A stretch of 64,000 nucleotides of DNA from Nitrospira sp. (GTDB lineage: Bacteria > Nitrospirota > Nitrospiria > Nitrospirales > Nitrospiraceae), in contig JAFEBH010000025.1 of the NCBI GenBank assembly GCA_018242765.1, positions 140,858 to 204,857 of the forward strand, read 5' to 3'. Positions 3,852 to 30,838 of this stretch are shown piece after piece. The notes under the pieces were generated by a model. It was not told where the DNA came from and searched no databases. It saw only the letters and a list, made by a program, of their open reading frames with translations. Position 1 is the stretch's first letter. Each line of letters starts with the position of its first letter. A program made the translations under genes and the position numbers.

Positions 3852-3877
3852 TGCGACGCTGGCATCAACAACCCACT

Positions 3878-4112: not shown

Positions 4113-4122
4113 ATTCACCTCA

Positions 4123-4150: not shown

Positions 4151-4579
4151 AGCCGTGCCCAGCAAATATCAACGCAACCAATAGGGAATCAATACGCCTG
4201 GCACAGAGGAACACTACCGCCACTCAAAAGCGGAACGCATACAGAAACTGCTCGAGACACTCACAACAGGTTGACTCTTTCGAATTTCTGAACCGAGCAT
4301 AGCAAGGCACATCGATTCAGATCCTCGATGTTGATGAAACGGAAGGACATATCGGATTCTTATAAGCCCACCTCTCACCTACTCTCATTGAGAGTAGCCC
4401 TCACTTTCCCACATGCTTCAGGTTGTCAAGTGACGGCAAGCTAGCACTCGACATGAAGGCCCAATCAGTACGTCCAAACGCTAAAGACGCGCAGGATGAA
4501 AGGGGTGTCGACAGCCTGCCCGTCTACCTATCAACCTCCCGGGCTTTTCTGACAATCACACAAAGACTCCCGACCCCTT

Positions 4580-12300: not shown

Positions 12301-12551
12301 TGATAGAAGGTCAACACATCGGCAACAGTGGCCCACGCGTCGAGCAGCGCCACAGCCGGATCATCGCCGGTATCCGAAGTCAGTCGTCCGAGAATAGGAA
12401 ATCCCCGACGCGAAAGCTCGGCCTTCATACTTCTGAGAAACGCCGAGTGTGTCCCGACTCGATAGCGGAGGCGGTCCAATCCCGAGCGGTTACTCACAGA
12501 GAGAGGAGTCCTGCTCTCGGCAGCCTCCCAAGAATCGTGAGACTTCGTCAT
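9318..12551 (-). CDS. Baseplate J (gpJ/gp6)-like wedge protein, paralog 2 (Afp12 position)
   Basis: 1077 aa. N-terminus: ALLDAWATVADVLTFYQERIANEGYLRTATE...ARLVGY. C-terminus: GGADPEGTDLVRANA...VVSVQDYEDFA. Both are gpJ-family signatures. 4-nt overlaps on both sides. Confidence 0.75.
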   Translation of the reverse strand: MTKSHDSWEAAESRTPLSVSNRSGLDRLRYRVGTHSAFLRSMKAELSRRGFPILGRLTSDTGDDPAVALLDAWATVADVLTFYQERIANEGYLRTATEHRSLVELARLVGYVPRPGVAASVHLAYTVESAAPSLPDQGRTTSATKEPSVTIPAGARVQTIPGPGELPQAFETSEELDARASWNKLQPRLTRPQRITPDNVDMLKTVYFEGTAPGLKPNDVVLFDFQDSARPFYRRIAVVHDPDLANKRTMVTLQPKPLQEEVEQALESSIQSLTSEGAQQPTKAEKIKREILDSLKQTITARMPPQERLADLSKKVTTLEHRAKQIRTGETREWMLDLSTTLSKTLKKDRGDGTKDEESAQPFVLDRQPADGPVSELVYAALTANPLSKDGGVSERLPHTRLEETHPVTVYAFRVKASLFGHNAPKEPTALNDKTKVMTFYEWQVDTADKTPNTVYLDASYDKITSNSWVILEYSPQGIVVPMRVSTVDTGMSRALYGITGKTSKLVLSSAGGEEQPWFQDKEGFGIIRQTVVYAQSEELSLAGEPFVDSIGGEASTHIELDGYVEGLKPGRWLIVTGEEVDVTQPLERITLPSEQEKEAKGEITIQGTRRSELVQVSAVEDGWAMLPKTDKTTTSPASQQPAYPAASDKADEKKRTLVPAPGNATHTTVVLKSSLKFQYKRETVEIYGNVVRATHGESRREVLGSGDAGKALQHFPLAQNPLTYTAASTPAGIASSLSVYVNGVRWKEAMRLTDLGSRDRAFVVQTDEEQKTTIIFGDGQNGTRLPTGIENVKAEYRSGIGTVGNVEAERVRLLMTRPLGVKAVDNPLRASGGADPEGTDLVRANAFLGVMAFDRVVSVQDYEDFARSFAGIGTARAELLRHGRQQFIHLTIAGIEDGPIDQGSDLYNHLTEALRKYGDPRHQFSLASRELLVLVLSARVAVHPDYQWADVEQQVRTTLFAQFSFAKRALGQDAYLSEVISTIQNVRGVHSVDVDVFDYVPQIQEAGAQRRLLPIPELDRLARKKIEDMKKTPQDQPKDAISVSPARIVAGAVRPAQLGYIPFAVPSAIELTPRPV

Positions 12552-15500
12552 CGTCCCCCCTCTAAGGTCATCGCCAGCGTTCCGAACTCCGGAGAGTTAG
12601 GATCATTATCGAGTCGCGCAATCTCGAACAGACCAACCGGGAGCACCCCTTCGCGAATTCCCTTGTCCGACGACAGACCCACACGCTGAAATTGAGTGAC
12701 TTCGATATTCCGAACACCGGGAACAGCTTGTGCTACGGCGACAAGACGGCTGAGATAGATGCTCTCTCCGAACGTGAGCAGATCGGGATGGAAGAATCCT
12801 TTTCGTCCATGAGGAAGCACCCCGTTCCCGAGCACAGCACGGAGTTCTTCACGCACATGGTCCCGAAGTTGATGCGGATGGAGCGTGACAGTCAGTGCAA
12901 TCTCCAGCGGCACATAGCGTGCAGGAAGGACAACGACCTCATGCCCGATGCGTCGATAGGCGTGCAGACTTCTGGTCAGTTCATCGCGCAGCCCATCCTC
13001 AAGCACGAGTCCGTGCAACGGGTCGATGAACACGCGCACTTCATACCACCCTTGTGCCCAGCGGAGTTCAGCAGCCGCGCGCTGCACCTTCGGGTTCCGT
13101 TCCGCGAGACGAGCATAGTCCTCCGCTGCCACCGCTCGCTCAAGATGAGAGCGGAGGCTTGCCGGGGCCTTGAGTTTGGCCGTGGCGATCGATTCAGGGT
13201 CGGAGCCTCCCTGCGCCCGAAAAGGATTTCGTACACGGAGCACACTCGATCCAGAAACCGTGGCGGAACGATACACGAGATGTGAAATGGCTTCCGCCAC
13301 TACGTTGCCTCTCGTGCCGTTTCCAATGCGGTACGTCGCCTTCATCGCCACACCAGGCTCGACGCGGCGTCCGAGATCACCGTTACCGAAACGTACATGT
13401 GCGACCTCTCGATCATCGACTTCCACCACGACATGCCGATCTTCTCGACGGCTGTTCAGGAGGTCGCGCCGGGGCCTCCACTCCTTTCCATCTTGGTCTT
13501 TTCCCTCATGCTCCTCTTTAATCGTGAGAGACGGCAGCGCCGCGCTGATATCCTTTCGTATTGCCCCCCGTGTCGATCCGTTGACATCCTGTGGTATTGC
13601 ATGCTGTGCCGATCCATAGAGAAGAGGATTGTTCGGCTTCAGCCATTCACTGTACTGTGGATCAAAAAGAGCTCCCACCTCTTGGGCATCACGTTCCGTC
13701 AGACAGTATCCAGAGTAGGCACGCTCGCGCAGTGCAAACAGACGTTGCATTTTATGGGCGAACACAGATCTTCCTGAGGACACACTCTGGCGAGATGAGG
13801 AAGGCAGCAGGAGCCGACCTTCCCGAAGCAGAAGCTTCTTCAACGTCTTGGTCGCATGTGTTGTGGCCTCTGAGCCAGAACGGATATTCAAATCGGCGAG
13901 GAGTTCTTCGTCAAAAATTGCCGTCAGAGTCGCCATTTCACCCACTGACAGACCCGCCACATTTCGTTCATCGGCCTCCTGTTTACGTTGCTGCACAGCT
14001 CGCCAAATCTCCACGACTCGAAGCCGGAGATCACGGATGATCTGGTCGATGACTCTTGCTTGATGCCGGGCGATCGTGCCGGTGTCAGGAAACGGGACAG
14101 CCTGCGTGACCGGCCCATGCGTCAAGACTGGGTGAAACGGCGCAGCCTGGACCGCTGTGTCAGCGGGCTGCCCTTCCCCTTCACAGGCGGTCGGTTCATT
14201 CTGTGCCGGAACGATCCACGCCTCCTGCTCAGTGACCGTACGCCCATGGTCCACAAGCACGACATTACCTCTGGCAACCGTCACGTCGTTGATCAGTTCA
14301 CAGCATGGTGCGTCGCCGATCGCCGAGATCACCAAGGGAAAACGAAGGGCATCCTCACGGTCCCATTCAATATGGACCACCGGCTGGGCATGCAGCTCAT
14401 CACAACCAGGCGTCACCTTTGCCAGCCGAACTGCGTGCCGATGCTGAGGATCTGCATCAGCCATGTGGCCTGTCCGAGGGCCTTTGACTTCTTCCAAAAT
14501 CAGGACATCGCCAGCACGCAATTGCTTCAGCGCGCGTTCACCACCCTTGTCTTCATCCCGAAGCGTGGCAGACGTCGCTCCGGCAGGCAACGAACAGACT
14601 CGATGGTCCCACGTATAAAAGTTGATGCAGTTGTGTGCGGTATACAAGTGTATTGGCCGATCCTCGATCGGTTCAAACACTTCGTATTGATTCGATGGTA
14701 CCTCATCCATGTCTCGTCCGGACATGACGACGTTCCGGCCGGTCATGGTCTGATTCGTATCGGAAACAAAATAGACCTCACCTGGCCAAAGCGGCATATC
14801 GTCGGCGGTTTCAATGCAGACCCACGCGCGGGCGTTGCAGCCGTCATGCAAGGCATAGTCGATCAAGCGCAGATGCCGCCGGACGGAGATCCGCTGCCTG
14901 GCCGTGTGGAGATAGGCTTCGGTCGCGACGGCATCTTGATAGTAGCTGAGTTGGTCGCCGATATAGGCCAACACTTCAACCAGCATCAGTCCCAAGTCGG
15001 GAGCATGCCGTTCCTGCCACGCCGGTGCGATGGTTGCAAGGCGGTCGAAAATCAGTTGGCGAAAACTCGCGTAGTCCTTGGCGAGGTAGTTGATCTCCGG
15101 TTCTTCGCGCAGAGCCCTGGCCTCTTGGATCGAAGCACAAACCGGACTGGTCGGTGCCGCACCGCGAAAGACAAAGTCAACCTTGGCGTACAGAGGATCA
15201 AATCCAGGAAGCGGCTCCGTTCCAGGCCGGTTGTACTCATCCCCTTTCACGACATGCAGCGTATAGGTTGAGAAATCACCCCACTGATTGACCGTGATCT
15301 CGAGAACGTCATCCTCATCCTTGCGCGAACCTCGAACCGGCTTCACATGCGTCGCAACGAGACCTTTCACCCGCACGCCGCCATCAATCCGCACGTTTTC
15401 TTTGTTCACCACCCCCTGAAACTTACCTAGCAGGTAGACACGGAGGAGCGGCTGCTTCTTGTCGCCGACCACAATCTCCTCAACCTCGATATAGTCAAGA

Positions 15501-15571
15501 CCATTGAGGCCCGGCTTTTGGCGCACCGCTTCCCGCCGGCGGTCGTCTCGACAGATCACTCCAGACTCCAC
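12548..15571 (-). CDS. Baseplate J (gpJ/gp6)-like wedge protein, paralog 1 (Afp11 position)
   Basis: 1007 aa. Motifs: LMLVEVLAYIGDQLSYYQDAVATEAYLHTA and GGSDPESIATAKLKAPASLRSHLERAVAAEDYARLA. Confidence 0.8.
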   Translation of the reverse strand: MESGVICRDDRRREAVRQKPGLNGLDYIEVEEIVVGDKKQPLLRVYLLGKFQGVVNKENVRIDGGVRVKGLVATHVKPVRGSRKDEDDVLEITVNQWGDFSTYTLHVVKGDEYNRPGTEPLPGFDPLYAKVDFVFRGAAPTSPVCASIQEARALREEPEINYLAKDYASFRQLIFDRLATIAPAWQERHAPDLGLMLVEVLAYIGDQLSYYQDAVATEAYLHTARQRISVRRHLRLIDYALHDGCNARAWVCIETADDMPLWPGEVYFVSDTNQTMTGRNVVMSGRDMDEVPSNQYEVFEPIEDRPIHLYTAHNCINFYTWDHRVCSLPAGATSATLRDEDKGGERALKQLRAGDVLILEEVKGPRTGHMADADPQHRHAVRLAKVTPGCDELHAQPVVHIEWDREDALRFPLVISAIGDAPCCELINDVTVARGNVVLVDHGRTVTEQEAWIVPAQNEPTACEGEGQPADTAVQAAPFHPVLTHGPVTQAVPFPDTGTIARHQARVIDQIIRDLRLRVVEIWRAVQQRKQEADERNVAGLSVGEMATLTAIFDEELLADLNIRSGSEATTHATKTLKKLLLREGRLLLPSSSRQSVSSGRSVFAHKMQRLFALRERAYSGYCLTERDAQEVGALFDPQYSEWLKPNNPLLYGSAQHAIPQDVNGSTRGAIRKDISAALPSLTIKEEHEGKDQDGKEWRPRRDLLNSRREDRHVVVEVDDREVAHVRFGNGDLGRRVEPGVAMKATYRIGNGTRGNVVAEAISHLVYRSATVSGSSVLRVRNPFRAQGGSDPESIATAKLKAPASLRSHLERAVAAEDYARLAERNPKVQRAAAELRWAQGWYEVRVFIDPLHGLVLEDGLRDELTRSLHAYRRIGHEVVVLPARYVPLEIALTVTLHPHQLRDHVREELRAVLGNGVLPHGRKGFFHPDLLTFGESIYLSRLVAVAQAVPGVRNIEVTQFQRVGLSSDKGIREGVLPVGLFEIARLDNDPNSPEFGTLAMTLEGGR

Positions 15572-18893: not shown

Positions 18894-20234
18894 TCATGGT
18901 GCGACGGGCACCCTAGCTGCCCGCTCAGCGATAAGTTGGTCAATCGTAAGCCGTCGCCCATCGCTTGTTCGCACAAATACCTCGCCACCGCGCCTTTCCT
19001 GTCCAGCACGGAGAAAAATATGAAACACTCGGTAGCCTTCTTGGCTCCTGAACGCGAACACATTTGTGCCATTGGGTCTAGTCTCTTCGAAATTGAATCG
19101 GATGGTCGGATCACCAATGACATTTCGGAGAAGCTCAGCTTCCACATCGAGACCAGCTCGATGTGCTCGATCAAACTCAGCCTGGCTGAAGTTCGTGCCA
19201 ATCCGTCGATCGTAGTTGGGCACCCTAAAACGCTCTGCCAGTAGATGGAGAAGGTTCAGCTGAAAGCTGATATCGTCAGATGAGAGTAAGTCGTCAAGGT
19301 CTAAGTAACCAGAGTCGAAGTTATCAATCAAAAGAGGCACGAATCTCCCACCATCCTGAACACGACCCGCACTTGTAATGAGCCGCAGGGGAACCACTTC
19401 TCCTCGATCTATGAAACCACGCAGATGGCAGTCAAAGGTCGTGAGCGCTGTCTCATCAACTACATCGTAGACAATCCGTCTCCCATCGAGCCGATACTGG
19501 ATGCCTGTAGAAATCGCATTGAGTCGGTCGACCAATTCCTGACGTCGATCGAAGGCAGAGGCTTCTCCTCTGCCTGGTGGTCTCACTTCAACTGTGCGCT
19601 GGATAGTCGGTGCGCCTGTTGCCTGCTGCACCACATGCGTCAACTCATGAGCAATTAACCGCTGTCCCTCGTTTGTCCCTGGAGCGAACCGCCCTGCACC
19701 AAACACAATGTTATGTCCGACGGCGTACGCACTAGCGTTTACGTCACGAGCTGATTGTGCAGCGGCTGCACCGGAATGCACCCGCACCTGGGAGAAGTCA
19801 TATCCAAAACGCTGCCCCATATCTTGCTGTAGAGCCGGTTTCAGCAACTGGCCTGTTGAGTTCAAAACTTCATGCACACTCGGCGGCACATCCCCTACCC
19901 CAATTACACCAGCGGTTGCTCGTCGTTGCACCAAGGGCTGAGTCCTGCCTCCGTTCTGTTGCCTAGTCACATCCGCAGGCGACATCCACATGACTTGCTC
20001 AGCTACACGATCGGCTTCTTGCTCAAACACATCGCCTGGCTCACTGATCGCCAGCTTGGTTTGCAGCAGCTTCCCGCCAACACCCAGTTTCTTCTTCTGA
20101 CATTCCGCACACTGCCCTCCACCCATGGTGTGTGTCCCGCAGACACATTTGCGTTGCAAAACACCGCGTGAGACTGGCGTGAAGGGCATGAAACTATTGC
20201 GCCTTGTCTGGTTGTGCGTTTTCTCACTCAACAT
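18894..20234 (-). CDS. DUF4157-led eCIS cargo protein 2 with an unassigned C-terminal domain
   Basis: 446 aa. N-terminal module: LQRKCVCGTHT..CAECQKKK..LAISEPGDVFEQEADRVAEQVM...FGYDFSQVRVHSG...AYAVGHNIVFG...HELTHVVQQ. About 235 aa follow with no motif I recognise. Confidence 0.8.
   Translation of the reverse strand: MLSEKTHNQTRRNSFMPFTPVSRGVLQRKCVCGTHTMGGGQCAECQKKKLGVGGKLLQTKLAISEPGDVFEQEADRVAEQVMWMSPADVTRQQNGGRTQPLVQRRATAGVIGVGDVPPSVHEVLNSTGQLLKPALQQDMGQRFGYDFSQVRVHSGAAAAQSARDVNASAYAVGHNIVFGAGRFAPGTNEGQRLIAHELTHVVQQATGAPTIQRTVEVRPPGRGEASAFDRRQELVDRLNAISTGIQYRLDGRRIVYDVVDETALTTFDCHLRGFIDRGEVVPLRLITSAGRVQDGGRFVPLLIDNFDSGYLDLDDLLSSDDISFQLNLLHLLAERFRVPNYDRRIGTNFSQAEFDRAHRAGLDVEAELLRNVIGDPTIRFNFEETRPNGTNVFAFRSQEGYRVFHIFLRAGQERRGGEVFVRTSDGRRLTIDQLIAERAARVPVAP
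19599..20162 (-). repeat. DUF4157 leader module, copy B (paralogous to 22135-22704)
   Basis: The protein blocks are near-identical between the two cargo genes. Nucleotide similarity is visible, for example ccacccatggtgtgtgtcccgcagacaca versus ccacccatggtgtgcgtgccacaggcaca. Confidence 0.7.
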
Positions 20235-20362: not shown

Positions 20363-20728
20363 TTAAGCCTGGTTTACAGTAGTTAACCACTTCTCAAAGT
20401 CCTGCAATGTCATAAGAACTTCTGGCTTCAGCCGGTAGTCGTCGTTGTCAAAATCGACAAAGCACTCTGCTGGCAAACCTGCGTATGCAGGACCACTTTG
20501 TGCTGCATAAGCTCTGAAACGCACACCGGTGTCTTGGTCGAGGATTGCATATGAGTAGTAGACATCACCTGCCGAGTCTGATGCGCCAAAACGTGCCATG
20601 AGCAGTGTGCCGAAAGCCTGCACATCAAACGCCTCATCGTCCGTTAGTGTCGGATTTGTCTCATATCGACTAGCGAGTTTGGCACCGCGCACCTCTTTTG
20701 CACCAAGCCGGACATAGCGCGATCGCAT
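20363..20728 (-). CDS. Small protein translationally coupled to cargo protein 1; candidate immunity/accessory protein
   Basis: 121 aa. Its ATG shares one nucleotide with the upstream TAA (TAATG at 20726-20730). No recognisable family. Confidence 0.6.
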   Translation of the reverse strand: MRSRYVRLGAKEVRGAKLASRYETNPTLTDDEAFDVQAFGTLLMARFGASDSAGDVYYSYAILDQDTGVRFRAYAAQSGPAYAGLPAECFVDFDNDDYRLKPEVLMTLQDFEKWLTTVNQA

Positions 20729-22803
20729 TAGTCACCCTCCGGTCGCTCTTCAGTGCTTCCAGTGGCTACAAAACGTCCAAGTGCTGGAATCAGCATCAGC
20801 AGTGCTGCGGACCCCGCACCCAGCAAGGCTTCATCACCAGGCACTGGATCGAACACCGCAATCAAAGCGAGAATTCCCAGAATGATTGCGCCCACCACCA
20901 ACAACGCAATTGCGATTGCCGCAAGTGCACGCACCAGGATTTCCCCGATTGTTAGCAACACTTCACCAATGAAACCTAGGGCTTGACCAATTGCTTCTAC
21001 CATCCGTGTCAACGTCGCGCTGAGTTCAGCTAGAATTGCAGTAGCAACACGTGCAGCAACCACTGTAACCACTACTGGAATCAGTCGCTGAGTTTGCTCA
21101 CGCAACAGCCGTCGAATCCTGTCAAGCAGATCAGACAATGCCACTGCAGGCACACCAACGCATAGCGCGACCAGCGCGTTCCGCACTAATTCAGTCAATA
21201 CGCTGCGCAGTTGGTTACGTAACTCAGAAATTAAGGTGTCTGAGACTAGCCTCACCAGGGTTGTTACGATTGAACGCACCTCTGCCCCAACGGCCTGGTC
21301 GAGCAGTTGTGCGATCTGCTCAGCGGTAGCTCGGCTCAACACCTGGTCGGCAACCGGCCCAAGATACGGTCGCAACATTTGTCGGATCTGTGTACCAAAG
21401 TGACGCTCGGCTAACCGAATCAAATCACCAAGACTCTGTCGTCGTAGTGTTGCCTCAAGTGGCCTCTGTATGTGATCACGAATGAATCCATCCAACACCT
21501 CCTGCGCCGGACCGCCAACCACGCGGTCAACATATCTTGCAGTCTCCTCTGCAGACACACCACAAGTGTAGGTATCTGAACCACCGCCAGTACACCAATA
21601 CCCAATAGCACCTGGTGCAACCGTCTTTGCTTTCAATGTACGTGTGCGGTCTCCAATAAAATCGCCGATTACGGTGGTATTAGGTAACACCCCGGTCAGC
21701 CTGGTAAATGATGGTCGCAGAGGGCCACGCAGGTAACCTCTCTGAAAATCGCGGTCATCATCGCTTGCTGTCCCACAGATACCGGTACCATACAACCGGT
21801 CTACCGACTGATCGGCACGACGAATATAGTGTTCCGATTCAAGTACACCTCGTGTCGGTGCTGAGCCTATTGGCTTGATCTCTCCAATTTCGTAGAGGAT
21901 CCCGGATCGACGCATTAAATCGGCATAACCTAAACTGGTATCAACACCCTGGCAACCTTGACTGTCAATGTTCCGCTTTGTCGCACGTGGAATCGGCACC
22001 TCGTTCAACATAGGTAGCAAGAAGGTCTGGATCTGGGTATGTGCTCGCTCCCCGGCACCCATAGGTCCATTGTCGTTCTCATCCTCCTCTGTCATTGAAG
22101 TCGCGCACCCACCTGCCCCGCGTGTAGTTGCTCGCTGCACTGAGTAGCTTGCATCTACACCCGACTGTTGAACGACATGAGTCAACTCATGTGCAAGCAA
22201 GCGTCGGCCCATGTTTGTTTCAGTCGAAAATTGACCTGTACCAAATACGATATTGTGACCCACCGTGTAGGCATGGGCGTTCACATGCCGCACCGATTGC
22301 TCGACAGTCCCACCGGAATGCACTCTCACATGACTAAAATCCTGACCAAATCTTGGCTCGAAGAAGGCACGTGTAGCTCCATCAAGTGGCTGCCCTGGTG
22401 ATTTCAAAACATCACTCACACTCGACGGAGCTTCTGCCAATCCTGTTGCACCGCCGACTGCTCGCCGTTGAACCAACGGCTGTGTCATTCCGCTCTTTTG
22501 CCGTTTACTCACATCCGCCGGCGACATGCGCATCACTTGCTCAGCGACACGATCTGCTTCCTGCTCATACACATCGCCAGGTTCACTGATCGCCAGTTTG
22601 GTTTGCAGTGGCCTACCCTCGACACCCAGTTTTTTCTTTTGACACTCCGCACACTGTTCTCCACCCATGGTGTGCGTGCCACAGGCACACTGGCGTTGAA
22701 GAAGACCAGTACAGCCTGACCGAGGAGCCTGATTCCTTCCAGCTTCAGCTTGTACGGCAGTCCGTTCCATTCCCACTCTTCCCTCAGTCTCGCGGCCCCT
22801 CAC
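20728..22803 (-). CDS. DUF4157-led eCIS cargo protein 1, multidomain with a hydrophobic C-terminus
   Basis: 691 aa. It has the same leader module as cargo 2, including HELTHVVQQ. The middle domain carries GERAHTQIQ...LGYADLMRRSGILYEIGEIKP. The C-terminal ~150 aa are very hydrophobic (ALVALCVGVPAVAL; LAAIAIALLVVGAIILGILALIAVF; LLGAGSAALLMLIPALG). Confidence 0.8.
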   Translation of the reverse strand: MRGRETEGRVGMERTAVQAEAGRNQAPRSGCTGLLQRQCACGTHTMGGEQCAECQKKKLGVEGRPLQTKLAISEPGDVYEQEADRVAEQVMRMSPADVSKRQKSGMTQPLVQRRAVGGATGLAEAPSSVSDVLKSPGQPLDGATRAFFEPRFGQDFSHVRVHSGGTVEQSVRHVNAHAYTVGHNIVFGTGQFSTETNMGRRLLAHELTHVVQQSGVDASYSVQRATTRGAGGCATSMTEEDENDNGPMGAGERAHTQIQTFLLPMLNEVPIPRATKRNIDSQGCQGVDTSLGYADLMRRSGILYEIGEIKPIGSAPTRGVLESEHYIRRADQSVDRLYGTGICGTASDDDRDFQRGYLRGPLRPSFTRLTGVLPNTTVIGDFIGDRTRTLKAKTVAPGAIGYWCTGGGSDTYTCGVSAEETARYVDRVVGGPAQEVLDGFIRDHIQRPLEATLRRQSLGDLIRLAERHFGTQIRQMLRPYLGPVADQVLSRATAEQIAQLLDQAVGAEVRSIVTTLVRLVSDTLISELRNQLRSVLTELVRNALVALCVGVPAVALSDLLDRIRRLLREQTQRLIPVVVTVVAARVATAILAELSATLTRMVEAIGQALGFIGEVLLTIGEILVRALAAIAIALLVVGAIILGILALIAVFDPVPGDEALLGAGSAALLMLIPALGRFVATGSTEERPEGD
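22135..22704 (-). repeat. DUF4157 leader module, copy A
   Basis: See the 19599-20162 entry. Confidence 0.7.
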
Positions 22804-22829: not shown

Positions 22830-23108
22830 TTACTGTTTCTTCGCTGAGTGACTGGTCCCAATTCCCTGATACACCGCTTGAGCAATCTGCCGTCCAAGCT
22901 GGACGGGGCTTGCACCCTCTGACATATTCATCACTGTGTGCGGCACAGAAGCACGGGCGCCTCCGGCCATGGTGTCCGGTCCAACGCCATTCACTTCAAT
23001 CAAGCGTGCCAATTCCTGCTCGACGGCCCCCTGCACGAGTGCCCGTTGGCTCCCTCGGAGAGGTAGGTCGTCCAGGATTAATCGCTCGATGTGCAATCGG
23101 ACGTTCAT
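22830..23108 (-). CDS. Small conserved-looking hypothetical protein between the ATPase and the cargo genes
   Basis: 92 aa (MNVRLHIERLILDDLPLRGSQ...). 4-nt overlap with the ATPase stop. Confidence 0.55.
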   Translation of the reverse strand: MNVRLHIERLILDDLPLRGSQRALVQGAVEQELARLIEVNGVGPDTMAGGARASVPHTVMNMSEGASPVQLGRQIAQAVYQGIGTSHSAKKQ

Positions 23109-25222
23109 GCCACCACTTCCGTTTCCTCATCCCATTGGAAATCGGCTTCGTAAATGGGTCGCTCCAGTTTGCGAAACTCCGCCCGAGCCGCCTCAAAGAT
23201 GAGCGGCATGGTCACGGGTGTACCGGCACCCGCTGCGAGAAACGCGGCGTTCATCGCAACATTGTTGATATTGCCACCATTCAGGTTGAGCTGTGCCAAC
23301 CGATCGAAGTCCAGTTGGGCCGTTTCTGTTTCTCGTGGAAAGACCCGTTCCCAGATGGCCTTTCGCTCTTGGATGCCGTGGGCACGGAACTCCACGACGA
23401 ACCGAATGCGGCGCATGAAGGCCTGGTCCAACGCACTTTTCCGATTTGTTGCCAGGATGGCCAACCCCCGATAGGCTTCGATACGCTGTAAGAGATAATT
23501 GATCTCGATGTTGGCATAGCGGTCGTGGCTGTCTTTCACGTCGCTCCGTTTGCCGAACAACGCGTCGGCCTCATCGAAAAAGAGGATCGCGCCGCCGTCC
23601 TCGGCGGCGTCGAACAACCGCCGGAGGTTTTTTTCCGTTTCTCCGATGTACTTACTGACCACCGCCGACAGGTCGATCCGAAAGAGACTCAATCGCAAGT
23701 CGTTCGCCAGCACTTCGGCTGCCATCGTCTTGCCGGTACCGCTCTCGCCGGCAAAGAGGGCATTGATGCTCAATCCGCGAGAGCGCTTCGCCGCAAAGCC
23801 CCAGTCGCTATAGACCCTGGTACGGTTCGCCACCTGTGCAGCCAGTTCATGTAGGAGCTTGAGCTCCGGTTCAGGCAACACAATGTCTTCCCAAGTCGCC
23901 TTTGGTTCGATCCGCTGCGCCAACAGCTCCAAACGTGGGCGGGTGTCCACAACACAAGCCTCCCAGAGCTGCTGGGGAATGGACTGTTGTCCGATGGCAG
24001 GAGATGACAGCGTCGTGCGCGCGATCTGATGGATCGTCGTGAGATTCAAATTAAACTGGCCGGCAAGTCTCGCCGCTGTACCGTTCTGCTGAGCCCCCAA
24101 AAGAGAATCCCACGCCTGATGTTGTTCGGATTTCGTCGGCTTCCTGATATCGAATGCGACTGAGGCACGGCCCGTTTCCATCCGACGATCCTGCGTATCA
24201 AGGAAAAAGATGCCGCTGCTCCGAGCTAAGAAGCGATGCAGCGCGGACGCATGGGTATCGCCTGTGGCCGTTTTCTCCATCTCATGGGCGTCCAGGTACA
24301 AGGCAAATGGCCAGAGAACCCCTTCACGCATGAGCAACCGCGTCAGCTGTTCCAGTTCGGCTGGTGGCGATGGGAGCAACTCGATTGGGAACCGATAGAG
24401 AGACAAGCGCAGTGCCGCTGCCGCATGACTCGCGACCAGTTGCTTGCTCGATGAATCGACACCCAGCAATTGCATGACCGGAACTGCCTGCAGCGACCAG
24501 GCCTCTCCTACCTGGCGAATCATGCTGTCCACTGTTGACCGTTGCGACGGTGGGAGATCTAGACCTCGATCTTCATACCGGAGTGGCAGTAGCAATGGCA
24601 CGAGTCGATCATCCAGATAGTTGAGCCCTTTGATGTAATTCACAATGCGCTCGTCGGCCCGCAGGGCGCTCGTCGTCAGCGGCTGTGCACCAGGTTGGTT
24701 GATTTCGAGCAGCCGCCAATATCTCAAGGGCCTCTCAGGCGACAGCACATCCCAGGCCGGCTCAGCAAACAGCGCCAACGCGAGCGCAAAGGTGGGATAG
24801 CGGCGCGCCGGATCATCCTGAGCCTGCGCACAGAGCAACGCCATTCTGGTATCAAACTCCATCGCCGCACAGAGGAGAAGCACTTCACTCTCAAACCTCG
24901 ACAAGCCCAAGTTACGGCGCAGCACAATCAACGCCGGTGGCTGGTCTACTGTTTCAAATGCCGCTAGTTCCTCAGCAGCTCGCGCCAGTTGCTTCTCACT
25001 GACACTGTTAGTTCCAACGGCAGGTTGAGCCTGTTTCGCGTCACGTCCTGATGAACGTCGAACACCTTTGTGCGGAGCCGAGCGAGGTTCTGGCTGTACC
25101 CGTGACGCTGCACCAGCTGACTGCTCGATAAACCAGGCCAGGCGGAACCGTAGCCATGCTAGTGCTTTCCTCAAATACTCATCATTCTGTTGCTGCCACG
25201 ATCTTGACTTCGAGGCTTTCAT
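23105..25222 (-). CDS. eCIS AAA+ ATPase (Afp15-like)
   Basis: Walker A is GESGTGKTMAAE and Walker B is ILFFDEADALFGKR, within a single C-terminal AAA module after an N-terminal region of about 450 aa. The likely start is the ATG at 25222, which overlaps the cap-gene stop (ATGA). The track ORF extends to 25273. Confidence 0.9.
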   Translation of the reverse strand: MKASKSRSWQQQNDEYLRKALAWLRFRLAWFIEQSAGAASRVQPEPRSAPHKGVRRSSGRDAKQAQPAVGTNSVSEKQLARAAEELAAFETVDQPPALIVLRRNLGLSRFESEVLLLCAAMEFDTRMALLCAQAQDDPARRYPTFALALALFAEPAWDVLSPERPLRYWRLLEINQPGAQPLTTSALRADERIVNYIKGLNYLDDRLVPLLLPLRYEDRGLDLPPSQRSTVDSMIRQVGEAWSLQAVPVMQLLGVDSSSKQLVASHAAAALRLSLYRFPIELLPSPPAELEQLTRLLMREGVLWPFALYLDAHEMEKTATGDTHASALHRFLARSSGIFFLDTQDRRMETGRASVAFDIRKPTKSEQHQAWDSLLGAQQNGTAARLAGQFNLNLTTIHQIARTTLSSPAIGQQSIPQQLWEACVVDTRPRLELLAQRIEPKATWEDIVLPEPELKLLHELAAQVANRTRVYSDWGFAAKRSRGLSINALFAGESGTGKTMAAEVLANDLRLSLFRIDLSAVVSKYIGETEKNLRRLFDAAEDGGAILFFDEADALFGKRSDVKDSHDRYANIEINYLLQRIEAYRGLAILATNRKSALDQAFMRRIRFVVEFRAHGIQERKAIWERVFPRETETAQLDFDRLAQLNLNGGNINNVAMNAAFLAAGAGTPVTMPLIFEAARAEFRKLERPIYEADFQWDEETEVVA

Positions 25223-26490
25223 TGTACGGTGACCTTCTTCGTCGTATCGAATTCCGGCGGCGTCTTGCTCCAATCGACCAGAAGGCTATCCACTCCATCC
25301 ACCCGTAGTCGGACGAAATAGATCCCAGGCACGATGTTCTTCAGGCGAAACTTCAAGGTATCCGTCTGTGCTGGGCGTGTTTCCGGATGCAGCTCTCGAT
25401 CGCCCAACAGGAGCGCCACACGCTGGGTCGCCTGTACCCTGGGACTCACTTGAACGGTTAATATCGCATCTCGCCTGACTGGCTTCGGAGTAACGTTCTC
25501 AATTTTTGGCGCAATAGACAGACTGAGGGCATTGGTCATCCGCTCATTCCCCGCTGCCGCCGGATCGATCGGTGTGATGTGGGCGGCCACGGTATAGAAC
25601 CCTGCCGGCAACTCGGTCGGCTTGTTCGGAACGGTCACCTTCAGCTCCTTGTCCGTTCCGTTCTTGGCCGGAATCTCCACAGTCTTCTTGAGCAACGGAT
25701 GCATCAGGTGCACTACCACCGAACTTTCACCCAAATGATGCCCCTTGATCAGGAGCTCATCTCCCAACAGTGCAGTGGGCTGTTGTTTCGGCAGTTCTGT
25801 CATATCGATCAATTTCTTACTCGGCTCTCGTGTCGGAACCGTAATCTCCGTCAGCGTTGGGAACGGCGTCGTCAAATCCGGCTGGACCACGACTCCCCGA
25901 TCATTTTTTCCGCGCAGCAACACCGGTAAGGGCGTCCTCGTCAGTCGTGTACTCTCGATCAGCACCACGGAGACTTGGTAGGCTGCCGATAGGCGGTAAT
26001 GGATCTGAAAGGTCGTCCAAAGCTTCGACATTTCTTCAAACAGCAGCGGCTGAAGGGTAATGCGAACACGCTCGACCTGGTCTGCCAGATCGCTGGCGGC
26101 CAAATCGCGGTCGGCCCGCACGGCATCTCTGATTTCGTCCGTCCCTAAGAGCGGATGGTCATGTAAAATGCGCATGGCCTCGCCGAGCAGGGCGTGACTT
26201 CTCGTCTCATCACGTTCATCGCCGCTGTACGCCGTCAGCAAGTAGTACAGTGTGAGCGGCAACGGGGGCTGGCCGGTTTCACCGGATTTCACTCGGCCCG
26301 GCATTTCCATATTGCGAAAGGCCGCATCCGGTAACGCCTGATAGAGAAAGAGATTGATCCGTTGTTTGTCGGCATTAATCCCTTCCGGCGCTTTGTCTAA
26401 TGGCCTGACCGTCACGTGTTCCACTCCACCTTTTTCCAGCAGTCGACGCAATGTCGCGGTCACCGAGGCAATCGCCAGTGAATTGCTCAT
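25219..26490 (-). CDS. DUF4255 (Pvc16/Afp16-like) tail terminator/cap with a long C-terminal extension
   Basis: 423 aa. The N-terminus MSNSLAIASVTATLRRLLEKG...INLFLYQALPDAAFRN is the DUF4255 signature. The C-terminal ~220 aa look like two beta-sandwich repeats. Confidence 0.8.
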   Translation of the reverse strand: MSNSLAIASVTATLRRLLEKGGVEHVTVRPLDKAPEGINADKQRINLFLYQALPDAAFRNMEMPGRVKSGETGQPPLPLTLYYLLTAYSGDERDETRSHALLGEAMRILHDHPLLGTDEIRDAVRADRDLAASDLADQVERVRITLQPLLFEEMSKLWTTFQIHYRLSAAYQVSVVLIESTRLTRTPLPVLLRGKNDRGVVVQPDLTTPFPTLTEITVPTREPSKKLIDMTELPKQQPTALLGDELLIKGHHLGESSVVVHLMHPLLKKTVEIPAKNGTDKELKVTVPNKPTELPAGFYTVAAHITPIDPAAAGNERMTNALSLSIAPKIENVTPKPVRRDAILTVQVSPRVQATQRVALLLGDRELHPETRPAQTDTLKFRLKNIVPGIYFVRLRVDGVDSLLVDWSKTPPEFDTTKKVTVQ

Positions 26491-27779
26491 CCGCCACTCC
26501 GCCCACCACGGCGTTTGAGATAATCGTCAAGACTCATGGCCAATGATGGCTTGGGGTTCTTCTGGTGGCGGACCGGAGGAGGCACCGCACGAACCTCCAC
26601 CCGACCGATAGTCACCTGCACAACCGGTTCTAACGGCTTTCCTCTGCTTGCCGCTGATGCCTGACTGATCGTCGCTGCCGTCATGGGTGAATCTGCTCGA
26701 CGCACTGCGACAAAGTTATTCGAGGTCCTAGGCAACGTACGAGGGGTGGCTATCGGTTCTTGTTGGTCCAATGCTGAGGACGATGTCCCTGAAAAATCTC
26801 CTGGCTGACGCGACATGAGATACTGCGATGGAGCAGCACCCTTCGTTGTCCGTACCGAAGCGACAAGAGAAGGATCAAGAGACAAGTCACCGGCATTGTG
26901 TCCAGCAGCAGCTTGCTTGCGTACCTCGGCGAGAGTCCCTTCTGATTCACTCACGGTTGTCGGAAATCGATGGTGCTGCTCGCCATCACTCCGCGCTGTT
27001 GTTGCTCTGGCAAGAGGTTGCTGGGACGACGATGCACTGACTCGTCCCCCACGCGTATTGATAGGGCTGTTCGGCTCCTGGTCATGGGCTTGTGTTGTTG
27101 GAACAAACGAACGGTTGTCCGGAGATTCACTTGAAGACTCATCCATCAATAGAGAGCTTCCGCCTTGCCCGGCACTCTTTGTCTGCGCACTCGGTATCCG
27201 TAACGGTGACCTTGCGGATTGTGCTGCAACCCTTGGCCATAAGGCTGGCATCTCCTGAGGTGGCATCATCCGCATGCTGGAAGTTGAATCAGACACAACG
27301 CTCGGATCAATCGACGAGAGGCTGATTGTATTGGCCTCTGATGGATTTCTTACTGAGGTCCCGTGAGGCTCAAAATGTCTTGAGTTCGGCGCTCCTACGG
27401 TTGATACGCTGTTCATCGCCAGGTCTACTTCCTTCAGCTCTGACAGAAGCGCTGTTTCAGAAGAAGCAAGCAGTCGCTCACCCTCGGCGATAGGTACGGC
27501 GGCCTGTTCCCGATGCTGAGTTTCTCTTTCAAGATGGGATCCACCGTCTCCTCGGTTCTGCCCTGACGTCTCCGAAGATTGGTGCATGGTCGGATCATGT
27601 CTTGGAACCGCCTGATTGACCTCAATTGCCCGATGCGGTTCTTCCCCAGGATCCCCCCCTCTCACCTCTTCGCCTCTGGAGTTCGGCGATACTGGGTCAA
27701 ACATCGAGGGCAGGCGCGGCTGAATTGTCCGTTCAGGATGCCTTGTACGAATGAGAAGGTTCGTCAGATAATCGCTCAT
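26487..27779 (-). CDS. Low-complexity Ser/Pro-rich protein with conserved termini; putative tail-length determinant (Afp14 position)
   Basis: The likely start is the ATG at 27779 (ATGA overlap). The N-terminus is MSDYLTNLLIRTRHPERTIQPRLPSMFDP. The centre is long and disordered. The C-terminus is VVQVTIGRVEVRAVPPP...SLDDYLKRRGG. Confidence 0.55.
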   Translation of the reverse strand: MSDYLTNLLIRTRHPERTIQPRLPSMFDPVSPNSRGEEVRGGDPGEEPHRAIEVNQAVPRHDPTMHQSSETSGQNRGDGGSHLERETQHREQAAVPIAEGERLLASSETALLSELKEVDLAMNSVSTVGAPNSRHFEPHGTSVRNPSEANTISLSSIDPSVVSDSTSSMRMMPPQEMPALWPRVAAQSARSPLRIPSAQTKSAGQGGSSLLMDESSSESPDNRSFVPTTQAHDQEPNSPINTRGGRVSASSSQQPLARATTARSDGEQHHRFPTTVSESEGTLAEVRKQAAAGHNAGDLSLDPSLVASVRTTKGAAPSQYLMSRQPGDFSGTSSSALDQQEPIATPRTLPRTSNNFVAVRRADSPMTAATISQASAASRGKPLEPVVQVTIGRVEVRAVPPPVRHQKNPKPSLAMSLDDYLKRRGGRSGG

Positions 27780-28504
27780 CCCTGCACCATGTCCAGATAG
27801 CACTGGCGCCGCCAGGCACTCATCCTGAGGATGTCACCCTCGGCCCACCCGTACGCCGAGGCCAGAAGATGAACCTCACCCAACAACCGCTTTGCCCAGG
27901 CACCGATCTCACGCCACACAAACGATGCAATGTCGAAGAGCGCCTGCCATTGATATCCGCATGCGGCACAAGTCACCGCAAGCTCCACATCACCTTGAGG
28001 ATCGGCTTCTGCCATCCGTTCAATCACCGGTTCTGCAAGCGAACTCGGGAATGCCGTTGTCGTCTCGCCGCGATGCATGACTCGAATCAGACACCGTTCC
28101 AGTAAGAGCTGTTTGGCTGCACCTGGTTCGGGCTTGTGCACGACCATCATCAAGTCCTCACTCGTCGGCAGTCGGAACGTCACCTGGTAGTCGTCGACGT
28201 CACAGACAAACTCTTCTTGCGTCTCACTCTTCAGCGGCACTCGAATCTGATCGACCTCAAACACGAGATCAAGACTATCCCGGCATTGAGGACACACCAC
28301 CACTGTCTGCACGCATGATCCAAACAACTGTTCCCGCAACGCGAGTAAGAGTGCGTCACGACGGCCGATCGGCAGGCGGGCCAGTTCACCGACCGCCGTC
28401 TTCGGAAGCGCCTCAGCCAACAGACTCAGTGCTTGATTGACTGAGGACTGCCCCACACCACGTTCCCACACTCTCAACAGAGCACTCGCGGTGAGTACGT
28501 GCAT
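27776..28504 (-). CDS. Conserved eCIS protein with a CxxC...CxxC zinc ribbon; possible assembly chaperone
   Basis: 242 aa. CPQC and CAAC are spaced about 115 aa apart. It sits immediately downstream of the tube gene. Confidence 0.6.
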   Translation of the reverse strand: MHVLTASALLRVWERGVGQSSVNQALSLLAEALPKTAVGELARLPIGRRDALLLALREQLFGSCVQTVVVCPQCRDSLDLVFEVDQIRVPLKSETQEEFVCDVDDYQVTFRLPTSEDLMMVVHKPEPGAAKQLLLERCLIRVMHRGETTTAFPSSLAEPVIERMAEADPQGDVELAVTCAACGYQWQALFDIASFVWREIGAWAKRLLGEVHLLASAYGWAEGDILRMSAWRRQCYLDMVQG

Positions 28505-28510
28505 CGGCTG

Positions 28511-29038
28511 TTATGCTGCCGGTTCAGTAAAAGTCGGTTCCGTCGGCTCGGCTACCTCGTAATCTCGTTCCCAACCTTCGTTCTCCAGCTTGATGGTCTG
28601 GATAGCTACGGCATTGGCATTGGCATCGAGATCAGGTTGAGCCTGGAACTCCGAGACCCAGCAGCGATAGACCTTGTACGCAATCGCCAGTTGACCTGCC
28701 TCGTTGTACATCTCGATAATAATGTCCTTTCGGAAGTCCTTGAGCGAGACCTCCGCTCCCAATCCAGACCCGAAATTCCACACTTTGTTCGCCCATTTTT
28801 CGAACTCGGTATCGTGAGTCACCCCGCGCTCCAGCGTGATCGCTTCATACTTCGTACGGCCGGGGGACTTTCTTCCGGTCGATGGATCTCCACCTTCTCG
28901 GTGTTCCACGACTTCGGTGCTCCGCTTCAGCGACCCCACCTTGCTGATCCCGGCCACGTACTTCCCATCCCATTTCACTCGAAACTTAAAGTTCTTGTAG
29001 GGATCGAACCGCTGTGCATTCACGCTAAACTGCGCCAT
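28511..29038 (-). CDS. Major tail tube protein (Afp1 / T4 gp19-like)
   Basis: 175 aa. FKFRVKWDGKYVAGISKVGSLKRSTEVVEHREGGDPSTGRKSPGRTKYEAITLERGVTHD is the conserved phage tail tube region signature. Confidence 0.92.
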   Translation of the reverse strand: MAQFSVNAQRFDPYKNFKFRVKWDGKYVAGISKVGSLKRSTEVVEHREGGDPSTGRKSPGRTKYEAITLERGVTHDTEFEKWANKVWNFGSGLGAEVSLKDFRKDIIIEMYNEAGQLAIAYKVYRCWVSEFQAQPDLDANANAVAIQTIKLENEGWERDYEVAEPTEPTFTEPAA

Positions 29039-29062: not shown

Positions 29063-30838
29063 CTAGACTTCGATTTGTCCCGCCATCTGTTGCAACTTAA
29101 TAATGACAAACTCCGCCGGTTTGAGCGGTGCAAAGCCGACCACGATGTTCACAATACCGAGGTTGATATCGTTCTGCGTCGTGGTCTCCTTGTCGCATTT
29201 GACGAAATAGGCCTCACGCGGTGTCGTGCCTTGAAAGGCTCCCTGTCGAAACAAATTGTGCATAAAGGCCCCGATGTTTAGTCTGATCTGTGCCCACAGG
29301 GGCTCATCGTTCGGCTCAAAGACGACCCACTGCGTGCCTCGATAGAGACTCTCTTCAATAAAGAGCGCCGTGCGGCGGACGGGAACATACTTCCACTCAT
29401 CGGCGAGTTGATCGGCGCCACGCAGCGTGCGCGCCCCCCAAATCACTCGACCATTGATCGGGAATATGCGCAAACAATTGATCCCCAGCGGATTCAGCAT
29501 GCCGTTCTCATTATCATTAAGGGAAACGTTCAGACCCTGAATGCCGTTGATGGCTGCATCAAGTCCGGCAGGCGCTTTCCATACACCGCGTGCAGTATCA
29601 GTGCGTGCCATGACCCCGGCAATAATTCCGCACGGAACAAAGGTATCAATTTGCCCATCACGGAGCGGGTCGGCTTCAAGCACCCGTGGAAAGTACAAGG
29701 CAGCATTGCGGGCCATGGTGCCAGACAGTCCGAGCCCTCCCAGGCCCTTCTTGGCCTCAGCTGTCGCTGTATCTTTGTTCTTACTCCAACTTGCTGGAGA
29801 GTCGACAATCAGCATCGCCCGTCGTTCGGTGCAGTACGCCATGGCCACTTGATACACAATGGGAGGTACATCGTCTTCTCGTTTGTCCGGGGGGATACAG
29901 AGAAGGTTAAACAGATCCGCTTTGTCCAGTGCGAACATTCCGGTTTTGAGATCTTTTTTACCCTCATATTCCGCCTGCTTCAGATCACCGCCATCGGACC
30001 CCTTCATGTCTTCTTCAGCTTTTTTCAGTTCAGTTTCAGCCTTGGTAATGTCACCTGGTACCTGCGGCCTGGCATCTTTTGCTGCGATAAGTTTAATTTC
30101 GGCGCTTGTGGCTGCATCCGCCAACTCACTCTTGGCAGTTTCCTTCGCAGACGCTAAGGCCTTTTCTGCCGCATCGATCTTCGCTTGGTCCGGTGGGTTA
30201 GCACTGGTTGCCTTATTCAATTCGTCGTTCAGCTTTTTAAGCTTGTCTGATGTGTCTACCGCCTTCTTGACCTTGGGCAGTTTGTCACCTGTCAATTCCA
30301 CTAGACTTGATTCAGCCTTAAGCACTCTATCGATCCGCCGCGTGGTGTCAGCGACCGTCAGATTCAAGAACTTTTCACTACTATTCCCCAGCCGAACTGT
30401 AAGGTTGAATAGAGCATCGGTGGCGCTGAGCCCTAAACGTGTCCGCATCTCATCGGAGACTTCCACGTCTATCGTTGCCCGCAGCTTCTTACCCCATGTG
30501 CCAGGACTTTTTGCGACGAGAGCCAGATCATCTACTCCCAAGCTCGCCCTAGCATCGTCAGGTGCCTGCGGATCCTTATAGAGTCTGACAATGATCGCTT
30601 GACTACCGCCGTTCAGATAAAAATCTCGAACAGCGTAACTCATGGGATAGTTCACCCCCAACCCGCCAAACTGCCGTTCAAAGTCCCCGAAACTGTTTAT
30701 TGTCACCGGCTCGTTCGCAGGCCCCCAAATAGCCCGGCCCAAGAATGCTGTAATGGAAGTCGCAACTCCCGTAATCGTACGCACTCCGCTCGGGATTTCT
30801 TCGATGTACACTCCTGGATATGTCGGCGATGTCGGCAT
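29063..30838 (-). CDS. Contractile tail sheath protein
   Basis: 591 aa. The N-terminus PTYPGVYIEEIPSGVRTITGVATSITAFLG is the canonical sheath N-terminus. The conserved C-terminal half includes ADLFNLLCIPP...YFPR...WGARTL. GGAGGA RBS. Confidence 0.92.
   Translation of the reverse strand: MPTSPTYPGVYIEEIPSGVRTITGVATSITAFLGRAIWGPANEPVTINSFGDFERQFGGLGVNYPMSYAVRDFYLNGGSQAIIVRLYKDPQAPDDARASLGVDDLALVAKSPGTWGKKLRATIDVEVSDEMRTRLGLSATDALFNLTVRLGNSSEKFLNLTVADTTRRIDRVLKAESSLVELTGDKLPKVKKAVDTSDKLKKLNDELNKATSANPPDQAKIDAAEKALASAKETAKSELADAATSAEIKLIAAKDARPQVPGDITKAETELKKAEEDMKGSDGGDLKQAEYEGKKDLKTGMFALDKADLFNLLCIPPDKREDDVPPIVYQVAMAYCTERRAMLIVDSPASWSKNKDTATAEAKKGLGGLGLSGTMARNAALYFPRVLEADPLRDGQIDTFVPCGIIAGVMARTDTARGVWKAPAGLDAAINGIQGLNVSLNDNENGMLNPLGINCLRIFPINGRVIWGARTLRGADQLADEWKYVPVRRTALFIEESLYRGTQWVVFEPNDEPLWAQIRLNIGAFMHNLFRQGAFQGTTPREAYFVKCDKETTTQNDINLGIVNIVVGFAPLKPAEFVIIKLQQMAGQIEV

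Follow-up and report, generated by a model that had tools for sequence, protein, structure and literature searches.

The window analysed here, a stretch of 64,000 nucleotides from a Nitrospira sp. (contig JAFEBH010000025.1, positions 140,858 to 204,857 of the forward strand), carries on its minus strand a complete operon for a contractile injection system of the extracellular type (eCIS). An open reading frame (ORF) inside this operon, at positions 20728-22803 and hereafter called the candidate, is read as encoding an eCIS cargo protein that would join a loading leader, a PD-(D/E)xK-type nuclease and a membrane-inserting, tape-measure-like tail, and that would be accompanied by a small partner protein binding this tail. 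This reading as a whole is given a somewhat better than even chance, on the grounds of gene context, modularity, predicted folds, conservation and co-inheritance. The operon was recognised by its Pfam matches (sheath, tube, Pvc16_N, AAA+, CIS_tube, Phage_base_V, gp25 and Baseplate_J), and the candidate lies in it two genes downstream of a Pvc15/Alg15-like AAA+ ATPase (WHD + AAA; 23105-25273, minus strand), the presumed cargo loader, and directly upstream of a 121-aa partner gene (20363-20728, minus strand).

The candidate is the longest ORF of its region and comprises 691 codons counted from a GTG at 22803, with a TAA stop at 20728-20730; it had been proposed as a gene, with these limits and on the minus strand, in an earlier note on this DNA, and it is confirmed here with a revised start. 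Since the ATG at 22770 (22768-22770, M12) is preceded by the Shine-Dalgarno-like GAGGGAAGAG, and since the database protein P0001, 99% identical to the candidate, has 680 aa, a length that agrees with initiation at M12, translation probably begins at this ATG to give a protein of 680 aa, the GTG at 22803 probably not being used. The motif positions reported in the earlier note (GERAH 251-255, LGYADL 291-296 and YEIGEIKP 304-311) were right and its numbering of D295, E308 and K310 holds, while its parsing of the protein into a DUF4157 part, a middle domain and a tail was essentially correct. It could assign neither of the two C-terminal parts to a named family, and this is borne out here.

The Pfam family PF13699 (DUF4157, now the eCIS core domain) matches residues 139-215 (22159-22389, minus strand) with an E-value of 1.9e-30 and 105.3 bits against a gathering cut-off of 22, and its HExxH motif is present as HELTH at residues 205-209 (H205-E206-L-T-H209). 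A single DUF4157 module at residues ~34-223 had been claimed earlier; the domain and its HELTH motif are real, the Pfam domain proper covers only residues 139-215, and residues ~33-138 constitute a separate region with a CxC...CxxC pattern. This N-terminal region (residues 12-138; 22390-22770, minus strand) is presumed to be a system-specific loading sequence, because of its analogy with the N-terminal domains (NTDs) of Cgo1 and Cgo2, the cargo proteins of the Algoriphagus machipongonensis system AlgoCIS. In that system the NTD common to both proteins was reported to be required for loading and DUF4157 to be dispensable for it, their C-terminal domains (CTDs) are different, the proteins fill the tube lumen, and an AAA+ ATPase is implicated in cargo loading. 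By the same analogy, the N-terminal region of the candidate would act as the loading signal, and the AAA+ ATPase would pass the protein, in unfolded form, into the lumen of the tube. The CxC-x9-CxxC motif of this region, QCACGTHTMGGEQCAEC (C39, C41, C51 and C54; nucleotides 22642-22689, minus strand), recurs in some homologues and in the other DUF4157 protein encoded at the locus; it may be a zinc knuckle of small size inside what is presumed to be the loading sequence.

The second DUF4157 protein, also cargo-like (446 aa; 18894-20234, minus strand), shares the NTD-DUF4157 block with the candidate, at 69% identity across residues 33-214, and shows no similarity to it beyond. Its C-terminal domain of ~240 aa is unrelated and without a Pfam or PHROG match, and its gene has no small partner, the CIS_tube gene following directly. 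In the candidate, DUF4157 is joined to the middle domain through a linker (residues 216-247; 22063-22158, minus strand) in which homologue alignments reveal a conserved TRGAGGC...DED motif.

The middle domain, residues 248-411 (21571-22062, minus strand), was assigned a divergent PD-(D/E)xK-like fold from its AlphaFold2 model, its conservation and its Foldseek and Pfam comparisons. The model, spanning residues 222-431, has pLDDT values above 95 for residues 251-401 and a pTM of 0.78, and displays, in model numbering, helix 26-40, strands 45-50, 71-79 and 82-90, and helix 94-117, followed by more strands; the core alpha-beta-beta-beta-alpha(-beta) topology of the PD-(D/E)xK superfamily is therefore present in the prediction. 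D295 is predicted on strand 2 (model residues 71-79), and E308 and K310 on strand 3 (model residues 82-90), which is the canonical placement for this superfamily. In an alignment of 32 sequences reaching down to 24% identity, residues D295, E308, K310, K276, Y326, R336 and Y402-W403-C404 are invariant and H255, on helix 1, is conserved in at least 90% of the sequences, while E252 varies among homologues and E268 is not conserved either; the family consensus reads AHxQIQ...IPRATK...GxADL...IGEIKP. Because H255 is conserved while E252 varies, the signature indicated by the alignment is therefore H...D...ExK (H255-D295-E308-K310), the variant used by cap-snatching endonucleases. The E...D...ExK arrangement proposed in the earlier note is thus retained in its D295 and E308-x-K310, both invariant and on the right strands, and lost in its first glutamate, E252, whose place is taken by H255.

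Foldseek comparisons of the same model point in the same direction: of the 50 best PDB matches, 30 or more are PD-(D/E)xK nucleases, including TnsA, R2 RLE, the cap-snatching endonucleases of arena-, hanta- and bunyaviruses, Cas4, RecB, AF1548, Can2, Bax1, McrC and MGME1, and the named BFVD matches follow the same theme. Among all Pfam families the best match was PDDEXK_1 (PF12705), with an E-value of 0.004 and in one of the 32 divergent members only, and scans of the middle domain itself against Pfam, NCBIfam and PHROG gave nothing at useful E-values. The PD-(D/E)xK core anticipated in the earlier note was thus recovered by structure prediction with high confidence, and such nucleases dominate the Foldseek lists, no single match being significant. 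Taken together, the assignment of the predicted fold is probable and catalysis through H255-D295-E308-K310 plausible, and the domain would most likely cut nucleic acid in the target cell. The domain is flanked by conserved cysteines, one being C233 (~22105-22107), ~20 residues before helix 1, present in 95 of 98 full-length members within contexts such as GAGGC, PGSC or TNCHNW, and the other C404 of the invariant YWC motif at the domain end (~21592-21594, minus strand). A disulfide or metal staple between these two may join the domain termini, reminiscent of the cysteine clusters in nucleases of the Cas4/AddB type.

A search with residues 225-691 retrieved 26 proteins, nearly all of them with the whole architecture, and an exhaustive profile search with the middle domain yielded 111 representative clusters among 1.84 billion proteins; a word-indexed profile search had given one fragment only, the family becoming visible with the exhaustive representative search. 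The middle domain starts ~30 residues after DUF4157 in all 109 non-fragmentary members, and in none of them does it stand behind any other trafficking domain. The tail, for its part, is exchanged for unrelated tails in relatives, strongly hydrophobic segments following the middle domain in 86 of the 119 members with tails of at least 100 aa. The family spans Bacteria and a haloarchaeon. In ten long-tailed relatives Pfam finds no domain besides DUF4157, so that their tails do not bear on whether the middle domain is the toxic part.

The C-terminal ~260 residues (residues 429-691; 20731-21519, minus strand) constitute a Leu/Ala/Val-rich domain, modelled by AlphaFold2 as all helix, with helices of 41, 54 and 38 residues (pLDDT 72, pTM 0.60). 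Kyte-Doolittle profiles show several hydrophobic stretches in it, and a sum of membrane-insertion free energies with Hessa-type values singles out residues ~622-652 (20848-20940, minus strand; core IAIALLVVGAIILGILALI) as the only clearly transmembrane (TM) segment, with a KD19 maximum of 3.2 and a dG of about -5.05 kcal/mol. This segment is kept in all 37 relatives with the same tail, at dG values between -3.5 and -6.5 kcal/mol. The remaining hydrophobic helices are amphipathic or marginal, with dG above +1 kcal/mol, those preceding the TM segment being moderately amphipathic. The three or four membrane-spanning segments claimed in the earlier note are hence reduced to one, while its description of the tail as helical and membrane-competent agrees with the model and the free energies. 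An acidic turn, DPVPGDE (residues 653-659, with D657 invariant), which is the most conserved motif of the tail, follows the TM segment and leads into a marginally hydrophobic helix (residues 660-679; turn and helix together at 20767-20847, minus strand), as delineated from alignment, AlphaFold2 model and dG. On the model, TM segment, turn and helix may fold as a hairpin.

Searching PDB with the tail model in Foldseek gave nothing significant, only generic long-helix or membrane bundles, designed helical bundles and TM domains of ABC transporters. A ClyA/AhlC- or colicin-like pore former was considered and rejected, the ClyA and AhlC matches having E-values of 2-7 and TM-scores of ~0.2. Against the PHROG profiles, two tape-measure families were the best matches of the window tail (E 0.004 and 0.036), and six tape-measure families together with one large tail-protein family recurred when 15 diverse tails were compared (E 6e-4 to 0.09). 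Since none of ten shuffled controls (five shuffled globally and five within 15-residue blocks) matched any PHROG, a purely compositional origin of these matches was rejected. The Pfam scan of the candidate tail gave no CIS_TMP match, and no recognisable tape-measure gene was found anywhere in the eCIS locus of the window by Pfam and PHROG scans.

The ATG of the 121-aa partner gene overlaps the TAA of the candidate by one base (TAATG), with a GGAGG 8 nt upstream, an arrangement by which the partner is, to judge from these signals, translationally coupled to the candidate. Its predicted product is soluble and acidic and belongs to an unannotated family of 22 clusters; no Pfam match appeared even at E<=10, nor any in NCBIfam or PDB, nor a PHROG match at a useful E-value. 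A homologue of the partner stands directly after the homologue of the candidate in all 11 independent loci that have this tail (the window, a Nitrospira metagenome-assembled genome (MAG), Myxococcus fulvus, a Flavobacteriaceae MAG, Spirosoma, Aquimarina, Ferruginibacter, Halogeometricum limi and three metagenomic contigs). Conversely, searching from the partner led to three loci, each of which has the middle domain and this tail upstream. Relatives with other tails are followed by an ORF unrelated to the partner (~195 aa or 129 aa), or by no small ORF. From this 11/11 co-occurrence with one tail, and from other ORFs or none beside other tails, the partner is therefore seen to track the helical tail and not the nuclease-like domain. 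The idea implicit in the earlier note, that the 121-aa ORF confers immunity to the nuclease, disagrees with this comparison. Relatives whose tail is short and very hydrophobic have their own ~195-aa ORF downstream (3592-4185 in locus L010; 3692-4276 in the contig of P0096), unrelated to the partner and without an NCBIfam match. This suggests a separate family of cognate partners for every class of tail.

In two of the loci, those of M. fulvus (L001, 8332-12524) and H. limi (L008, 9182-11808), the effector-partner pair is an orphan, with no contractile injection system (CIS) gene within 10 kb. Because of these orphan occurrences the pair looks like a mobile effector module, and the family crosses the boundary between Bacteria and Archaea. 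The Myxococcus pair adjoins a reverse-transcriptase (RVT_1) gene, and the H. limi pair is placed among housekeeping genes.

Loading, activity, membrane insertion and partner binding are the steps that we infer for such a cargo protein. In the producer cytoplasm, the 121-aa partner would bind the hydrophobic and amphipathic helices of the tail, so that the cargo would stay soluble and out of the producer membrane; it would thereby be holdase and immunity protein in one, and would be stripped off by the ATPase during loading into the tube lumen, a process directed by the N-terminal region. After ejection, the tail would insert as a hairpin into the cytoplasmic membrane of the target cell, either damaging this membrane or helping the nuclease domain to reach the cytoplasm, and the middle domain, as a PD-(D/E)xK-type phosphodiesterase and probably a nuclease, would act in that cell. 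Insertion of this kind is also the published proposal for the tape-measure proteins of phages and, among CIS effectors, for Tme and Sle1. A further-reaching version of this mechanism, which we consider unlikely, sees in the candidate a self-translocating nuclease effector. The tail would then be the conduit through which the DUF4157-coupled PD-(D/E)xK domain crosses the cytoplasmic membrane of the target, the partner would be, instead of a classical immunity protein, a holdase like the Eag chaperones of type VI secretion systems (T6SS) and the first dedicated chaperone of eCIS cargo, and DUF4157 would control the nuclease intramolecularly, which would give DUF4157 a concrete function.

Several observations weigh against the interpretation as a nuclease cargo with a membrane-inserting tail. 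Foldseek returned no single significant match for the middle domain (best E 0.18, TnsA, in PDB and 0.029 in BFVD, with TM-scores of 0.2-0.33), and PDB sequence and profile searches with this domain and with the full-length protein found nothing. Its exclusive position behind DUF4157 is atypical of a free-standing polymorphic toxin domain. The tail model is moderately confident only, the tape-measure-like signal is weak even at its best E-value of 6e-4 and may reflect common helical periodicity instead of homology. Moreover, loci L003, L012 and L017 carry the middle domain without a tightly linked small downstream gene, so that an active, self-toxic nuclease would have no obvious immunity there. 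The partner is soluble, while toxins that insert into membranes usually have immunity proteins that are themselves membrane proteins.

Part of this evidence leads to the main rival, rather unlikely in our estimation, in which the tail is the toxic moiety, depolarising the membrane or forming a pore, with the partner as its immunity protein; the middle domain would be a conserved accessory module functionally tied to DUF4157, serving for example processing, regulation or particle association, and not the killing activity. Such a role would accommodate the co-variation of the partner with the tail instead of with the middle domain, all the more as the toxin-immunity pair of polymorphic toxins reportedly consists of the module at the extreme C-terminus and the gene that follows it (Zhang et al. 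2012). It would also accommodate the frequency of strongly hydrophobic segments after the middle domain, the obligate neighbourhood of this domain to DUF4157 and the absence of a partner from relatives without hydrophobic tails, as well as of a linked small gene from three middle-domain relatives. The persistence of D, ExK and H in sequences as low as 24% identity is, on the contrary, an argument for retained catalysis; one strong TM helix and one marginal helix offer little for a pore, the tail has no significant likeness to known pore formers (ClyA and AhlC, E above 1 and TM-score ~0.2), and the soluble, acidic partner is unlike the typical immunity proteins of membrane-targeting toxins. The opposite doubt, that the middle domain is no functional PD-(D/E)xK enzyme at all and represents either an alpha/beta sandwich of generic type in which D...ExK arose by chance, or an inactivated binding scaffold, is regarded as improbable. 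The want of a significant match in PDB, BFVD, Pfam and PDB-sequence searches, the variation of E252 and E268, which would provide the extra acidic ligand seen in many family members, and the flanking cysteines, suggestive of an unusual stabilising feature, speak for it. They are set against an enrichment of PD-(D/E)xK nucleases among the matches in two independent Foldseek libraries that is far above their library share, against invariant residues that lie exactly on the canonical secondary-structure elements, and against the resemblance of H...D...ExK to cap-snatching endonucleases, which appear among the Foldseek matches.

A role in the producer itself, as a structural or ancillary eCIS component, is as improbable as the lack of an enzyme; the candidate would then be a tape-measure-like lumen protein, or a membrane anchor for tethering, assembly or release. 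In five eCIS loci it has a fixed place, beside the AAA+ ATPase and shortly before the genes for tube initiator and baseplate, where phage tail modules have their tape-measure gene and where tme is found as well, and the window locus combines the want of a recognisable tape-measure gene with a candidate whose tail is weakly tape-measure-like and has a C-terminal TM anchor. Nevertheless, the interchangeability of the tails and the occurrence of the pair as an orphan make a structural, tape-measure or anchor role less likely, since orphan pairs as in M. fulvus and H. limi are typical of mobile toxin modules, and tail swaps would not be tolerable in a part that determines length or anchors the particle. 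A co-translated partner and an enzyme-like active site are likewise foreign to tape-measure proteins, and the relative in locus L002 coexists with a separate CIS_TMP gene, which lies two genes upstream of it.

The genes around the candidate are ordered, in the direction of transcription, as sheath (29063-30838), tube (28511-29038), a T4_baseplate-like gene, a 438-aa ORF (26487-27803) without Pfam or PHROG match, the Pvc16_N gene (25219-26490) and the WHD+AAA ATPase. These are followed by a 92-aa ORF (22830-23108), the candidate, the 121-aa partner, the second DUF4157 gene, CIS_tube, Phage_base_V and gp25, all features with coordinates being on the minus strand. The distal end of the operon consists of two giant Baseplate_J-like proteins and a DUF6519 protein, after which housekeeping genes begin. 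The two giants, very large at 1007 and 1077 aa, and the DUF6519/DUF4815 protein occupy 9318-15571 and 5491-7188 (minus strand), and the oversized baseplate proteins may be extensions of the type described as a cage for AlgoCIS. A LuxR/GerE-family regulator (31471-32151, minus strand) lies just upstream of the sheath gene, in keeping with published work that associates eCIS operons with regulators of the GerE type, and a 144-aa ORF without family (30908-31342) is placed between the two. A collinear locus with 81-88% DNA identity to that of the window was found in the MAG of an uncultured Nitrospira.

The succession of AAA+ ATPase, small ORF and DUF4157-middle-domain gene is shared by five eCIS loci (the window, L003, L012, L014 and L017), whose gene orders otherwise differ. 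An ORF of 70-98 aa always separates the Pvc15-like ATPase from the first DUF4157 cargo gene in these loci, the counterparts of the 92-aa ORF being located at 7642-7938 in L014, 3094-3348 in L012, 9528-9803 in L003 and 7755-7967 in L017. The 92-aa ORF has no family match and is 47% identical to its L014 counterpart. That these ORFs form one conserved family was rejected, only the window/L014 pair being clearly homologous and the other counterparts doubtful.

DUF4157 marks about half of the predicted eCIS toxins, most of which have no annotated toxin domain, and one such unannotated DUF4157-led family is defined here by its 111 representative clusters; the class of injected toxins in which it falls is known, the family itself undescribed. 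Its traits are a nuclease-like domain found only behind DUF4157, interchangeable and mostly membrane-competent tails, and one tail type with a strictly co-inherited partner. The obligate coupling between DUF4157 and the nuclease-like domain offers a handle on DUF4157 function. Should the partner prove to be a holdase for a membrane-inserting, tape-measure-like tail, the derivation of CIS effectors from tape-measure proteins of phages, a view now emerging, would extend to environmental eCIS, as would the T6SS style of chaperoning TM effectors, and a route would be provided to load membrane-active cargo into programmable eCIS.

Among known systems, Cgo1 and Cgo2 of AlgoCIS resemble the window locus in the presence of two DUF4157 proteins in one cluster, in their build of NTD, DUF4157 and variable CTD with similar NTDs, and in the adjacent AAA+ ATPase. 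Their CTDs are unrelated to that of the candidate (the CTD of Cgo1 being a predicted metalloprotease), and no PD-(D/E)xK-like domain, TM tail or small partner has been reported for them.

T6SS effectors with TM domains, such as Tse6, provide a parallel for the partner: in the producer, a small cytosolic Eag (DUF1795) chaperone shields their TM helices, which are proposed to aid a toxin domain in crossing the inner membrane of the target. Effectors of the Tse6 type have N-terminal TM helices and an upstream chaperone gene, whereas the candidate has a C-terminal tail and a downstream partner that, having no Pfam match, is not DUF1795; the parallel is one of analogy only.

The middle domain shares with the BaCT (Bacteroidetes C-terminal toxin) and PoNe DNase toxins its divergent PD-(D/E)xK character, the invariant (D/E)xK and the fact that standard homology searches miss it, and those toxins have cognate downstream immunity genes; unlike both, it occurs only directly after DUF4157. 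From BaCT, compared by description, it differs in position, immunity size and taxonomic range, and the case of one Spirosoma genome adds indirect evidence. BaCT is found at the extreme C-terminus, with BaCTic immunity proteins of 326-358 aa and almost only in Bacteroidetes, in contrast to an internal domain (residues 248-411 of 691) and a 121-aa partner in the candidate. Spirosoma panaciterrae DSM 21099 (L006), which has a homologue of the candidate and was in the genome set of the BaCT study, is absent from the BaCT table. PoNe is excluded, the motif Kx3GEx(n)GIDx2Yx(n)Yx3ExK being absent (neither GIDxxY nor Yx3ExK is present) and no DUF1911/DUF1910 (PoNi) gene lying downstream.

Effectors led by DUF4157 are well known, and Halogeometricum borinquense DUF4157 proteins have been described as CIS-secreted toxins neutralised by downstream partners. 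When plasmids, including that of H. borinquense, were searched by tblastn, only the DUF4157 segment matched, and the termini of the H. borinquense toxin genes, as deduced from published primers, disagree with those of the H. limi homologue; for these two reasons orthology with the H. borinquense toxins is not established.

The closest functional analogues of the candidate, matched by description, are Tme, Sle1 and the DUF4157-6TM-BaCT proteins. Tme (BN159_7576, Streptomyces davawensis) has, like the candidate, an N-terminal DUF4157, predicted TM helices and long helical or coiled-coil segments; it also shows a remote similarity to tape-measure proteins (TMPs), where the candidate has a weak signal, and carries a nuclease domain, where the candidate has a nuclease-like one, and it differs, again as compared by description, in its 2247 aa, in being ~70% disordered and in the C-terminal position and EndA-like nature (catalytic His) of its nuclease. 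The candidate shows the reverse order, with the nuclease-like domain before the helical and TM part, is compact at 680 aa and has a dedicated 121-aa partner. The tme gene is the largest ORF of its cluster and lies just upstream of the baseplate genes; in the window, the candidate (691 aa) is exceeded by the baseplate proteins of 1007 and 1077 aa, and the partner and the second DUF4157 gene intervene before the tube-initiator gene. Sle1 (Streptomyces lividans SLP), compared in the same manner, has in common with the candidate a helical C-terminal domain and a link to DUF4157, which is provided in trans via Sle2; it has a predicted TM hairpin, as the candidate may have, and a remote TMP similarity, where the candidate has a weak signal, and it associates with membranes, as the candidate tail would. 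An N-terminal coiled coil of 440 aa and the lack of a PD-(D/E)xK-like domain set Sle1 apart. The Sle1 relative RS14790 was reported to be neutralised by the downstream gene RS14785. Proteins of the type DUF4157-6TM-BaCT, with six predicted TM helices and BaCT as a PD-(D/E)xK DNase, are tabulated in the BaCT paper; the family member P0130 was tried as one of them and rejected, for it lacks any TM segment and its tail is beta/Gly-rich.

Given these precedents, the payload architecture is less unusual than the earlier note had supposed, and the combination of DUF4157, nuclease and membrane helices is not unprecedented. What is new here is a nuclease-like family obligatorily coupled to DUF4157, a reversed and compact domain order, and a dedicated partner family.

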